From NCBI RefSeq assembly GCF_030013205.1, contig NZ_CP122648.1: a stretch of DNA of 64,000 nt; one strand, 5' to 3'. The position numbers were made by a program. This DNA comes from Escherichia coli (lineage in GTDB: Bacteria > Pseudomonadota > Gammaproteobacteria > Enterobacterales > Enterobacteriaceae). Within the stretch, counting starts at the first letter, position 1; each line of letters opens with the position of its first letter. Of the stretch, positions 28,401-34,400 are shown piece by piece.

Positions 28401-31400
28401 GGCGTCTGTAGATGCTACTGCCACTCAGGTGGGGGTGGATATCCTCAAGGAGGGCGGGAATGCCGTTGATGCCGCCGTGGCTGTGGGCTACGCGCTGGCG
28501 GTAACGCATCCGCAGGCAGGGAATCTGGGCGGTGGTGGTTTTATGCTGATCCGCTCGAAAAATGGCAATACCACCGCTATCGATTTCCGCGAAATGGCAC
28601 CCGCCAAAGCGACCCGCGATATGTTCCTTGATGATCAGGGTAACCCGGACAGCAAAAAATCACTCACTTCGCATCTGGCTTCTGGTACGCCCGGTACGGT
28701 AGCAGGTTTCTCGCTGGCGCTGGATAAATACGGCACTATGCCGTTGAACAAAGTGGTGCAGCCAGCGTTTAAACTGGCACGCGATGGTTTTATCGTTAAC
28801 GACGCGCTGGCTGACGATCTCAAAACCTACGGTAGCGAAGTGTTGCCGAATCACGAAAACAGCAAAGCTATCTTCTGGAAAGAGGGCGAACCGCTGAAAA
28901 AGGGCGACAAGCTGGTGCAGGCGAACCTGGCAAAGAGCCTGGAGATGATTGCCGAAAACGGCCCGGACGAATTCTACAAAGGCACGATAGCGGAACAGAT
29001 TGCCCAGGAGATGCAGAAAAACGGTGGCTTGATCACTAAAGAAGATTTAGCGGCGTATAAAGCGGTCGAACGTACACCGATTAGCGGCGAATATCGCGGG
29101 TATCAGGTTTACTCGATGCCACCGCCATCTTCCGGTGGGATTCATATCGTGCAGATCCTCAATATCCTGGAAAACTTCGATATGCAGAAATACGGCTTTG
29201 GCAGCGCCGATGCGATGCAAATCATGGCAGAAGCGGAGAAATACGCCTACGCCGACCGCTCGGAATATCTTGGCGATCCGGATTTTGTGAAAGTCCCGTG
29301 GCAGGCGCTGACCAATAAAGCCTATGCCAAATCTATTGCCGATCAAATCGATATCAATAAAGCGAAGCCATCCAGCGAAATTCGCCCCGGCAAGCTTGCG
29401 CCTTATGAGAGTAATCAAACTACCCATTACTCAGTGGTGGATAAAGACGGCAACGCGGTAGCGGTGACCTATACGCTGAACACCACCTTCGGTACGGGCA
29501 TTGTCGCGGGTGATAGCGGTATTCTGCTTAATAACCAAATGGATGATTTCTCCGCCAAACCTGGCGTACCGAACGTTTACGGGCTGGTGGGTGGTGACGC
29601 CAACGCGGTCGGGCCGAATAAACGCCCGCTGTCGTCGATGTCCCCAACCATTGTGGTGAAAGACGGTAAAACCTGGCTGGTTACCGGTAGCCCTGGCGGG
29701 AGCCGGATTATCACCACCGTGCTGCAAATGGTAGTGAATAGTATCGATTATGGCATGAACGTCGCCGAAGCGACCAATGCGCCGCGTTTCCACCATCAGT
29801 GGTTGCCGGACGAGCTGCGTGTCGAAAAAGGGTTTAGCCCGGATACGCTCAAGCTGCTGGAAGCAAAAGGTCAGAAAGTGGCGCTGAAAGAGGCGATGGG
29901 TAGTACACAAAGCATTATGGTTGGGCCGGACGGCGAGTTGTACGGCGCATCCGATCCGCGCTCGGTGGATGATTTAACGGCGGGGTATTAAGGTTAGCGG
30001 CCCTCTTCGTGGGAAGAGGGCCGTATTGTCAGGGCAAGCCGAAGGTAGCCTTTTTTATTTCATAATCCTGTAGATATTCTTCCAGCGGCTTTGCCGTTCC
30101 AAGGGAATGAATTTCACCACTGTCTTTATCAATAATAAAAGGTGCGTTACCGGCTAAGCGCGCGGCCTCATCACCAGATTCAAGAAATTCTTGTGATTCG
30201 AAACAGAAATACCAGCCCTGGATAAAACGTCCATGCAGAGTGATGACGACCGGGAGATCTGCATCATCAAGGTAATGGTTCGCTTTCGCGAATGCGTCGT
30301 GAAAAGTAATCATAATTATAATAAATATTATTGTTGATCGTTATATTATTATTCTTGCGTTATACTTTGAGAAAAGGCGCATTCATCTTCGTCAAAGATA
30401 TTATTAAATGCTGATTTTGAAAAAAGTTCATCGGATAATATACAGTCACGAAATAAGTATCTGCTAATATTTTGTGATTTCTTTTTCAGAACGTCGAACG
30501 GGATTTTCTTATTTAAGATATCAGAATCTTATGATTCGGGTGAAATTCTAACTAAATCAACATGTCACTAAAATCATCATAGCCATTAGCTATTTCGGCT
30601 AAAATGGCTAAAATAGAGATTACATGTCTTCGGTCCATCTCACTTAAGGAGTGTAGTTCCGTTGTAAGTTTTTCCATAGCTTGCACTGCTAAATTTCGAA
30701 CAAGGAATTTTCTGCTGGTAATCTCTAAAAAGATGGCATGGTTTACAATGATTTTTGTTACCTTTTGATTATTATGAACAACTGTCCATGATTTCGTTTA
30801 AGAATGAAGAGAAATCACTAAACGAACTGAATATATTTTCTGTGCCAATATTATCTCTAATTTCAAAAAAGTTACTTTTAATGTCATAAGTAAATATTGA
30901 AATGCTATCATCACCGATCACTAACCGTTCTTGTAGATCAGGGTTTATGAAATCATCATTATTTCTATAAAATTCATTTACGGCAAAAAGGTTTTTAACT
31001 GAAGGTTCTGGAATCGAGAGGCTAAATAATCGTAATCCATTAGCTTCGAATCCATCCATTGCTCTTAAAAAAGTAAGATAATCAGGTTGATTATTAAAAA
31101 GAATACTAACTTCATTACATAATTTCTCCAGGCAATTAGTTGAATTAGAATTAAATTCTATTTGGATTATACTTTCAATAAATGATTCCTTGAGCGGTGC
31201 TTCAAATGGATAGTCTAAATCATTCATCATTTTTTTTAATTTATTTATTTGGGTTTTAGTCATCATTTTGTGGGTTCCATAATATTTTTCATGGGAGGAT
31301 AAATTGAGCCAGATGGAATGGCCCAGGGAGTGATTTTGCTTTCACCTACTAATACTCCCTTAGCTATTCGTGATTGCATGTTAGTAAAAACTTTATGATA

Positions 31401-34400
31401 TGGTTCGTTTTCGATTAATACTAAATTTTCGAAATCATTAGTACCACCATCATCTAGAGATAGTTTATGGTGAACATTATAATTTAGAGGAACATTGCCC
31501 TTTCTCATTCTTAAAAGGTCTTCGGCGTTGAATCTTCCAGATGCTTCGGAGGTTTTTGCAAGTTTGATAAGAAAATTTTTTCTTACAGTTTTATTAAACT
31601 CCTTTCGTAAGTTAGCTAAGTCTTTTGAAGATCTCTTAATGTATATTATTTCTATTATGTCTATACCATCAAGAAGTTTTTGTTGACCTCTAAGTTTGCC
31701 TAAGTAACTATTTATTTCTGTATATGTATCAACATTAGAACGCTTTGTTAAAAGAATAGATGCTGTTGCTATCGCTATGCCCGCTGTTTTTTCATTTAGT
31801 ATTTGATCATAGCCTTTTATTGCATCTCCACCCAGTTTTTCCGCAGTATCTCTGAATCCTTCAATGTTCCCATTGTATACGCCACCAGCAGCAAGTAGCC
31901 TGCCAATAGCTTTGCTGTTTAACGTTTTGAAACCATTATTTGTTTGGTTTTTTGAATTTGGTAAAAACAAACAGTTAAAATTTTCAGGGAGTGCCAAATA
32001 GCTGAACTCGGTATTTGCGATAAGATGTTGACAGAGGATAAATTCATAACTAACAGTTATTGTTTCTGTATCCAGTTGATTTTCAATGATCTGGTGATGA
32101 ATAGCCGATAAAAAAGCGCCTCTTAGTTGTATATAATAATACTTTTCCCATCTACCAAATCTATTTATTCGATAGAAGTCAAATTCCATAAATAATTGTT
32201 CATTATTGTTAATGGAATTAATAAATAATGGGGTGCTTTTATCAATTAATTTACAAAATGTTATACCATGGAACTGTGAACCAAGCCCCGTATTAGTAAT
32301 ACTATTTAAGAGTGAGAATGTAAATATTTCATCCTCATGCCCGCTCTGCCAGCGATTACCTGTAGACTCAGAAGTCCCACAACCTGCGGAGATGCTTCCT
32401 TGTTGTTCTCCCGTTACTGTCAGGTAAACAATATTACTCATCCCTGAAAAGTCCTTTTATGGCATGCTATTTTATCAATGGCAATATTATGCTTGTTAAT
32501 TGTTATTTATTTACGCCAGGAAATTGTAGGCGTATATATTAAAAAATAAAATATTACACTTTAGGAAGTAATTATGAGTTAAATCTCAATATATGTATTG
32601 GGCAAATAAATACCTTAAAGGAAGGTATGCAGATTTTGAATGACACCCTTTTTCCATCTCAGAAAAAGGGCACTATCTTACTTCACCCGCGCCATATAAT
32701 ACGCATCGACATATTCACCATTACGAAAAGCGTAATTTTTACCGGTGCCTTCAATCTCAAAGCCGAATTTTTTATAGACTGCGATTGCCGGGGCGTTATC
32801 CGCAAACACCGTCAACTCAATACGATCTATCCGTAGCCAGTTATCGCACATTTCAATCAATTCGCGGATCAGGGCGCTGGCGACGCCGCGGTTGTGCCAG
32901 CGGGAGTCAACACAGATACCAAAAGTTGCAACATGACTGCGGCGTGGGCCTTGATAAGCCTCAATGAAAAGATGACCCACCACGATGCCATCAATGCAGG
33001 CAACCAGTTGTTTAAACCCCTGGCGATCTTTCAATCTTTCTGGCCACCAGCCTTCCGAAGGATGAGGTAGTTGTAGTGTGTTGCAATACACCTCCGGCTG
33101 GGCGTGAATCTGCCTGATGGCCTCGTAATCCCGTGTTTCTGCGTGGCGTATCACTATCTCACTCATTCCTTTGTCCTCTTTGGGGTAAATGTCCCTTTCA
33201 ACATCATTGACTTTCAAATGCGAGTCAAATGCATTTTTTTGCAAAAAGTGTTGGACAAGTGCGAATGAGAATGATTATTATTGTCTCGCGATCAGGAAGA
33301 CCCTCGCGGAGAACCTGAAAGCACGACATTGCTCACATTGCTTCCAGTATTACTTAGCCAGCCGGGTGCTGGCTTTTTTTTTGATCTTTCGTTTTCAATT
33401 TATCCACGGGAAGTGCTTGTGTTCGTTATGCGCACTCCAGTAGGAACCACGTCCGCTTTGCGCTAAGGTGTAAATAACCACCTTAATAAGGACGAAATCA
33501 TGGTCATAAACTGCGCCTTTATTGGCTTCGGCAAAAGCACCACCCGTTACCATCTGCCGTATGTACTTAACCGCAAGGATAGCTGGCATGTCGCGCATAT
33601 TTTTCGTCGCCATGCGAAGCCGGAAGAACAGGCTCCCATTTATTCCCATATCCATTTCACCAGCGATCTCGACGAAGTACTAAACGATCCCGATGTTAAG
33701 CTGGTTGTGGTCTGCACCCATGCAGACAGCCACTTCGAGTACGCGAAGCGCGCGCTGGAAGCCGGGAAAAATGTGCTGGTCGAAAAACCGTTCACCCCAA
33801 CGCTTGCCCAGGCGAAGGAGCTGTTTGCGTTGGCGAAAAGCAAAGGGCTGACCGTCACGCCGTATCAGAATCGTCGCTTTGATTCCTGCTTCCTGACAGC
33901 GAAAAAAGCGATTGAAAGCGGCAAGCTTGGAGAGATTGTCGAAGTGGAAAGCCATTTTGACTATTACCGCCCGGTGGCAGAAACCAAACCTGGACTGCCG
34001 CAGGATGGCGCGTTTTATGGCCTTGGTGTGCATACGATGGACCAGATTATTTCTCTGTTCGGTCGCCCGGATCACGTCGCTTATGACATCCGCAGCCTGC
34101 GTAATAAAGCCAACCCGGACGACACCTTTGAAGCGCAGCTGTTTTATGGCGACCTGAAAGCCATCGTCAAAACCAGCCATCTGGTGAAAATCGATTATCC
34201 GAAATTTATCGTTCACGGTAAGAAAGGTTCGTTTATTAAATACGGTATCGACCAGCAGGAAACCAGCCTCAAGGCTAATATTATGCCGGGCGAACCGGGA
34301 TTCGCGGCGGATGATTCGGTCGGTGTGCTGGAGTATGTCAATGACGAGGGTGTGACGGTCAGAGAAGAGATGAAGCCGGAGATGGGCGATTACGGGCGCG

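Follow-up and report, generated by a model that had tools for sequence, protein, structure and literature searches.

Why does an Escherichia coli strain keep, intact and flanked by core genes, a type VI secretion system (T6SS) effector in a region without secretion genes? The question is raised by a stretch of 64,000 nucleotides from E. coli (contig NZ_CP122648.1), called the window in the following; positions refer to it unless stated otherwise. Between ggt and yrhB on one side and yhhY on the other, the window contains an AT-rich islet which encodes YhhZ, a protein of 392 residues with an Hcp domain and a predicted HNH nuclease domain, and YrhA, an acidic protein of 164 residues. The window is 100% identical to the pig isolate E. 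coli K_EC180 (NZ_CP062203.1; position 29992 corresponds to 323,634 of this record), which serves here as the host genome. The pair is yhhZ-yrhA, published as Hcp-ET1/ETI1, and is already known and routinely annotated in RefSeq. We consider it very likely that this published weapon is probably undeliverable in the present host and that immunity is the likeliest cause of its retention, the strain-specific part of this reading being less certain than the remainder. The analysis shows the domains, the orthology, the order of the genes, the immunity fold, the decay of T6SS2 and the pattern of substitutions; the DNase activity of YhhZ, its neutralisation by YrhA and the reason for retention are what we infer for the window pair.

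The assignment is based on position and sequence. In strain C227-11 (O104:H4), the published locus tag of Hcp-ET1 is AAF13_24945 (PMC6730261). The corresponding RefSeq tags AAF13_RS24945 (yrhA) and RS24950 (tssD), which are the cited tag or its neighbour, lie between ggt and yhhY in this genome. YhhZ and YrhA of the window are 96.7% and 97.6% identical to the C227-11 pair; this identity and the positional orthology make them members of Hcp-ET1/ETI1, so that the Hcp-ET type proposed in an earlier, sequence-only reading was exact. The two loci share the ggt-yrhB-yrhD-yrhA-yhhZ-yhhY site, the lengths of 392 and 164 residues, the 4-base gene overlap and every residue of the HNH core, whereas the window proteins differ at 13 of 392 (toxin) and 4 of 164 positions (immunity protein) and yrhD is truncated. 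Beyond orthology, the pair displays the other features of an Hcp-ET, namely an N-terminal Hcp domain, a C-terminal toxin domain that also occurs on other carriers, and a candidate immunity gene downstream. In K_EC180, yhhZ is annotated by PGAP as 'tssD, Hcp1 family T6SS effector' (WP_192297492.1).

YhhZ has been described repeatedly. [quoted passage not shown] According to reviews and a preprint, Ma et al. 2017 (Virulence 8:1189) characterised Hcp-ET1 of STEC004 and C227-11 as an HNH-DNase which is delivered by T6SS2, not by T6SS1, and which is neutralised by the downstream ETI1. With the other Hcp-ETs (Hcp-ET2 with a Tle1 lipase, Hcp-ET3/4 carrying pyocin S3 and colicin DNase domains, Usp) YhhZ shares the Hcp N-terminus, the swappable C-terminal toxin and the downstream immunity gene; unlike theirs, its toxin belongs to the specific HNH family of His-Me group 32. 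Bacillus subtilis has genes named yrhA and yrhB which are unrelated to those of E. coli, and presumably these gave rise to a divergent functional assignment in the literature. This assignment, a 'methionine-to-cysteine conversion' for yhhZ-yrhAB (PMC3309015), was judged a gene-name collision and set aside.

The N-terminal Hcp domain, recognised in the sequence-only reading, was recovered by profile search. Residues 1-147 match NCBIfam TIGR03344 with 119.6 bits (curated cut-off 58.9), and the Pfam model T6SS_HCP (PF05638) matches at 1.2e-11. Among canonical Hcp proteins, the closest is the one whose gene ends the T6SS2 cluster (ECs0216 of O157:H7 Sakai, 39% identity, E = 9e-35; the T6SS2-cluster Hcp of K_EC180 itself, 37% identity), whereas the T6SS1 Hcp reaches only 3e-7. 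T6SS2 as the cognate machine would be in keeping with this proximity. Hcp domain and linker, which make up the first 220-250 residues of YhhZ (56-64% of the protein), have counterparts of 65-76% identity in Citrobacter, Salmonella and Enterobacter, where the C-terminal domains differ (PF15644, PF21814, colicin D PF11429). Citrobacter koseri and C. freundii possess orthologs over the full length, with 62-74% identity. The linker helices (residues 176-232) are modelled with low confidence; both the linker (pI 9.6) and the C-terminal region (pI 9.0) are basic.

Assigning the C-terminal domain required more than pairwise matching, as the single-sequence evidence for HNH is weak (Pfam HNH, E = 0.013; phmmer against the PDB, 0.04). 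A library-wide search with residues 226-392 identified 582 cluster representatives, 345 of them at E <= 1e-10. In these matches the domain is always located at the extreme C-terminus, followed by a median of 2 residues and preceded by N-terminal parts of 0 to about 1,400 residues. Among 50 carriers, Pfam recognised as N-terminal parts LXG (5), PT-TG (5), PAAR-like (3), DUF4280, RHS, WXG100 and MuF; a domain riding on such varied carriers is a bona fide polymorphic-toxin nuclease module. Alignments of the homologs showed little or no variation at H324, H325, D330, D331, G333, N335, N339 and H349. When a profile of the domain was compared with the PDB, it matched Cas8f-HNH in its HNH domain at 1e-4 and aligned over a longer stretch with the DNases of pyocin AP41 and colicins E7 and E2 at 0.02-0.5. 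The AlphaFold model of YhhZ is confident at residues 245-385 (pLDDT 76-96), with values above 90 in the HNH core, and arranges a strand (321-325, with H324 and H325), a second strand (340-344) and a helix (345-360, with H349) in a beta-beta-alpha-metal topology. YhhZ thus carries the H-H...N...N...H motif on the fold which defines HNH/His-Me finger nucleases, and the HNH domain proposed from the raw sequence was borne out by residues, profile and model. Compared with Rhs2-CT/RhsI2 of Serratia marcescens, colicins E7/E9 and the pyocin S2/AP41 DNases, the carrier in YhhZ is Hcp, whereas theirs is an Rhs/PAAR protein or a colicin translocation domain; the sequence identity is only about 20-25%.

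The sequence-only reading had further named a translationally coupled acidic open reading frame (ORF) of 164 residues as putative immunity gene, and all elements of this description hold. The overlap between yhhZ and yrhA is 4 bases (ATGA), as the yhhZ stop codon TGA lies within the ATGATG of yrhA (…AAA TGA / ATG ATG ACT…). YrhA has a pI of 4.26, with 26 Asp and Glu versus 13 Lys and Arg residues. It matches the NCBIfam YrhA family NF038335 with 127.6 bits; no Pfam model, those for SMI1_KNR4/SUKH included, matched at E <= 0.001. A structure model computed from 26 homologs (pLDDT 82.8, pTM 0.81) was compared with the PDB by means of Foldseek. The top seven matches are all SUKH proteins, among them 3d5p (SMI1/KNR4), 2prv (B. 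subtilis YobK), 2icg, Knr4 and Syd, and the first four have a probability of 1.00 and TM values of 0.47-0.61. Judged by this model, YrhA is a SUKH member at the fold level only, its sequence family being NF038335: it superposes with SUKH proteins such as YobK but, unlike them, has no SMI1_KNR4 match in Pfam. Colicin immunity, in contrast, is provided by four-helix Im proteins. In polymorphic toxin systems, SUKH proteins serve nuclease toxins as immunity partners, as Zhang, Iyer and Aravind reportedly described in 2011.

Is a machine available to this effector? The earlier statement that the 64 kb contain no T6SS core genes was correct, and none are annotated in K_EC180 between 254,000 and 393,900, i.e. 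in the window plus about 40 kb on each side (about 70 kb on each side of the islet). The only core cluster detected in the host is of T6SS2 type and is situated at tRNA-Asp, the reported site of T6SS2 (3,957,007-3,969,891 in K_EC180). It is 3.63 Mb away from the islet and degraded; thus the term orphan remains appropriate. In comparison to Sakai, the cluster has suffered two deletions. Through the first, of about 7.1 kb, clpV has lost its 3' end, ECs0222, ECs0219 and tssM are missing, and the gene with the VasL domain (ECs0217) is gone for the most part; the second, of about 5.3 kb, has taken away hcp ECs0234 and vgrG as well as the N-terminus of an Rhs protein. In addition, tagH contains an internal stop. 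What is left intact in this region (3,954,137-3,969,891 of K_EC180) are tssB, C, E, F, G, J, K and L plus one hcp. TssM and VgrG are essential parts of a T6SS, and because both genes are lost, delivery in K_EC180 is unlikely. O104:H4 strains, in contrast, are reported T6SS2 carriers.

The chromosomes with this allele were surveyed with a chimeric query in which the islet was joined to 1.2 kb of T6SS1 tssC (CFT073) and 1.2 kb of Sakai tssM. K_EC180 and the 16 other genomes that were listed with 99.9-100% identity each gave one single place; in CFSAN018748 (99.9%) the query found two. A single place means that the K_EC180 chromosome lacks both the T6SS1 tssC and the T6SS2 tssM marker. The genomes with the window allele all originate from pigs; strains named ETEC (enterotoxigenic E. 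coli) and two of serotype O139:H1 are among them.

What is known of the family, together with the reports on the nearly identical ortholog, suggests the following scenario. The Hcp domain of YhhZ would be built into the inner tube of a T6SS, here that of T6SS2, and contraction of the sheath would shoot the tube together with YhhZ into a neighbouring cell, where the C-terminal HNH (His-Me finger) DNase would degrade the DNA. YrhA, presumably translated from the same transcript by coupling, would bind the basic nuclease domain and protect the producer and its kin. In the K_EC180 clade the toxin is most probably undeliverable, because T6SS2 has lost tssM, vgrG, part of clpV and further genes and because the T6SS1 marker is absent. 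The intact pair would most likely be kept since YrhA may still guard against E. coli armed with Hcp-ET1, the toxin gene remaining in place through tight linkage or as a passenger in slow decay.

The distribution of the islet bears on this scenario and on its competitors. Among 5,426 complete E. coli genomes, 3,757 (about 69%) have the ggt-yrhB-yrhD-yrhA-tssD-yhhY locus with at least 80% of the query covered, always on the chromosome. In order to estimate how many carriers possess T6SS2, a search was performed with the islet joined to tssM, and rows were taken at even steps down the ranking. The tssM part had a second place in 25 of 50 sampled islet-positive genomes; seven of the 25 genomes lacking it are K-12 or B laboratory derivatives. 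In total, this query gave 6,510 places, spread over 4,560 genomes; these numbers agree with about half of the carriers having both parts. Genomes of O157:H7 contain tssM and lack the islet. Strains of K-12 and B have kept yhhZ in the absence of any T6SS, and in K-12 strains an IS1 element within yrhA leaves 138 codons; the sequence-only reading had mentioned this disruption and stated that yrhA appears intact in the window, both of which are true. Other insertion sequence (IS) events at the locus are an IS1 which replaces the islet in EC291, an IS1 under the tssD match in CAU16175 and ISVsa5 under the match in 2017.04.02CC.

Pairwise Nei-Gojobori dN/dS values were computed over six alleles. 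For yhhZ they are 0.25-0.5 in distant pairs and 1.2-1.5 in close pairs; the comparison of the window with C227-11 gave 13 nonsynonymous and 3 synonymous differences. The values are 0.09-0.57 for yrhA, 0.01-0.15 for ggt and 0-0.05 for yhhX. By this sequence measure, which is based on few substitutions, yhhZ is under much weaker constraint than the flanking genes. Synonymous sites have diverged far less in the islet (0.01-0.08) than in the flanks (ggt, 0.12-0.31), and a sliding comparison with C227-11 gave 97.5-99.5% identity for yhhZ-yrhA, 93-97% for ggt and 80-85% for yhhY. The low divergence relative to the flanks suggests that the islet has spread or was homogenised within the species; this seems to have occurred more recently than for its surroundings.

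Among the competing explanations, the best supported one regards the pair as a decaying relic in which neither toxin nor immunity is under selection and whose intactness merely reflects a recent loss of T6SS2. The broken T6SS2 of K_EC180, the high dN/dS values of close yhhZ pairs, the truncation of the neighbouring yrhD, and the IS insertions and deletions at the locus in K-12 (yrhA), EC291, CAU16175 and 2017.04.02CC agree with such a decay. We nevertheless regard it as unlikely, since both ORFs are of full length with all catalytic residues present, dN/dS over longer distances (0.25-0.5 for yhhZ, 0.09-0.3 for yrhA) is not neutral, and an intact islet is present in about 69% of the complete genomes, with the tssM marker missing from half of these.

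Considerably less probable is a module which operates independently of any T6SS, be it a toxin-antitoxin-like addiction or stress module or a phage-defence nuclease, with the Hcp domain in another role. The sampled carriers devoid of the tssM marker, the presence of yhhZ in K-12 and B, and the suggestion of Blondel et al. 2009 (PMC2907695) would be in line with this idea. Against it stand the good conservation of the Hcp domain and its proximity to T6SS2 Hcp above others, the secretion carriers (PAAR, Rhs, LXG) on which the toxin domain rides elsewhere, and the T6SS2-dependent delivery which the secondary literature reports for the ortholog. As to phage defence, PADLOC gave no match for YhhZ, YrhA, YrhB or YrhD, and this variant was rejected.

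Several observations weigh against retention of an undeliverable Hcp-ET1/ETI1 weapon for its immunity. Both ORFs are intact in a lineage without a working T6SS2, although simple decay predicts otherwise, and K-12 tolerates an intact yhhZ with a truncated yrhA, which points to silencing, residual immunity or low toxicity. YhhZ has Ser328 where 96% of the domain homologs have proline (serine is also found in the characterised ortholog), the structure model has low confidence in its N-terminal Hcp part, and the dN/dS values stem from few substitutions. The function of the ortholog is known from reviews and one preprint, and the evidence for the window pair consists of sequences and models. Finally, the marker search covered the chromosome with T6SS1 tssC and T6SS2 tssM, and T6SS3 and plasmids were not specifically searched. 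That the toxin is still active in K_EC180 by means of T6SS3, a plasmid-borne or divergent T6SS or a T6SS2 remnant complemented in trans would accommodate this scope, the two intact genes and the surviving tssB, C, E, F, G, J, K, L and hcp, but is hardly credible given that the chromosome is free of T6SS2-type tssM and T6SS1-type tssC, that vgrG and tssM are deleted from the T6SS2 cluster, that T6SS3 is rare in E. coli, and that the accounts of the ortholog describe dependence on T6SS2, not T6SS1.

The features of the locus are compiled in the table.

Table. Position of the yhhZ-yrhA pair, its domains and the accompanying genes in the 64-kb window.
Feature	Position	Strand	Basis
yhhZ (hcp-ET1), 392 aa: Hcp tube domain, helical linker, predicted HNH DNase toxin	31263..32441	-	ORF, TIGR03344, orthology
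Hcp/TssD domain of YhhZ, residues 1-147	32001..32441	-	TIGR03344, PF05638
Linker/pre-toxin region of YhhZ, residues ~148-243, predicted helical	31713..32000	-	kept with the Hcp domain in relatives bearing other toxins
C-terminal polymorphic-toxin nuclease domain of YhhZ, residues ~244-382	31296..31712	-	
HNH beta-beta-alpha-metal core of YhhZ, residues 321-360	31362..31481	-	
yrhA (eti1), 164 aa, acidic, putative cognate immunity protein, SUKH (SMI1/KNR4) fold	30772..31266	-	NF038335, model, orthology
yrhD remnant, 41-44 aa	30552..30686	-	ORF, comparison with K-12 and C227-11
yrhB, 94 aa, acidic, Imm35-family immunity gene	30029..30313	-	Pfam Imm35
Islet as insertion/deletion unit (yrhD remnant, yrhA, yhhZ, 237 bp of upstream non-coding DNA), 2,350 bp, GC 0.32	30330..32679	.	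alignment to empty site

The extent of the islet was derived from the empty site of strain C-SRM-3: homology ends at 30329 and restarts at 32680, with about 95 unrelated bases in between. The unit is essentially the region 30314-32660 delimited in the sequence-only reading, which had also described it as a low-GC islet flanked by core genes; the mean GC content is indeed 0.319 (30314-32677) versus 0.508 in the whole window. Along the profile, GC drops from about 0.52-0.57 in ggt to 0.29-0.35 over 30200-32800 and returns to about 0.5 in yhhY and yhhX. No flanking direct or inverted repeats were found at the edges 30330/32679, and there is no integrase or transposase inside the islet. Consensus scans for promoters and terminators over 29900-32800 gave counts equal to those of shuffled controls. 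An Rfam scan of 29500-33500 gave no match in the islet; the only hit was the small RNA RyhB outside of it, which is located between yhhY and yhhX, adjoining the islet, at 33317..33381 (+) (RF00057, 83.1 bits, E = 2e-15). Three database entries (P0001, P0004, P0005; 552-556 aa, with 1-2 member sequences each) correspond to YhhZ and YrhA fused (392 + 164 aa); probably they are artefacts which arose at the ATGA overlap from a frameshift or from sequencing.

YrhB matches the Pfam family Imm35 (PF15567) with E = 9.2e-22 over the full model length. It is an orphan immunity gene with no toxin beside it, and its GC content (0.45) exceeds that of the islet. In a genome without yhhZ-yrhA-yrhD, yrhB is still adjacent to yhhY and therefore lies outside the insertion/deletion unit. 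Compared with its 51 residues in K-12 and C227-11, YrhD is shortened in the window by a premature stop which accompanies a duplication of the three residues 'ILA'; yrhD is a pseudogene in several other strains, too. Neither Pfam, the PDB nor PADLOC provided a match for YrhD, and the idea that it is a remnant of a colicin-type (Im) immunity protein was dismissed, as there was no Pfam match even at E <= 10 and no PDB sequence match. An imperfect inverted repeat of 23 nt (83% complementary) with arms at 30555-30577 and 30748-30770 brackets yrhD; it may be due to chance in AT-rich DNA.

Some further observations concern the surroundings. The window allele of yhhY (32678..33166, -) is only about 80-85% identical to those of C227-11, GON1437, ETEC6335, Trh52 and C-SRM-3 (dS 0.64-0.77, dN about 0.10), whereas the neighbouring genes are 93-99% identical. 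The divergence begins at the islet edge and stops before RyhB. This pattern suggests an allele which was imported by recombination or belongs to an ancient dimorphism. Between livJ and panM, the window contains a transposase of the IS3-family element IS1397 (about 15100..16448, -), which C227-11 lacks at the same site. A fimbrial operon with usher, chaperone and subunits lies between glgP and glpD (about 50650..56850, +); its major subunit is truncated and its chaperone frameshifted. At the glgP-glpD site, C227-11 has unrelated genes (a PstS-family gene and three hypotheticals), and this site constitutes a further variable islet, the second of the window. At a distance of about 6-12 kb before the start of the window, K_EC180 contains a frameshifted and IS1-interrupted RhsB-type element with a pseudogenised Imm57 (281,392-288,005), which is another decayed T6SS-associated toxin locus.

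What the locus may contribute to the biology of E. coli is related to the carriers without a usable T6SS2, i.e. about half of those sampled, including the clade of porcine ETEC and O139 strains, K-12 and B. It is rather improbable, in our estimation, that the pair is actively maintained in them by a benefit independent of T6SS. If this were true, selection would act on YrhA as an immunity protein in its own right which guards against armed neighbours, the toxin being maintained as its partner in addiction; alternatively, the Hcp-nuclease would have an undescribed delivery route or an intracellular role. With retention of an undeliverable Hcp-ET1/ETI1 pair for its immunity as the preferred reading, the mildly new elements are the gutted T6SS2 of the host clade, the approximately 50% of carriers without tssM, and the substitution pattern. 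The example indicates that a specialised T6SS effector can be recognised from the raw sequence without tools, and it frames a population-genetic question: why are 'weapons without a gun' so widely retained in E. coli?

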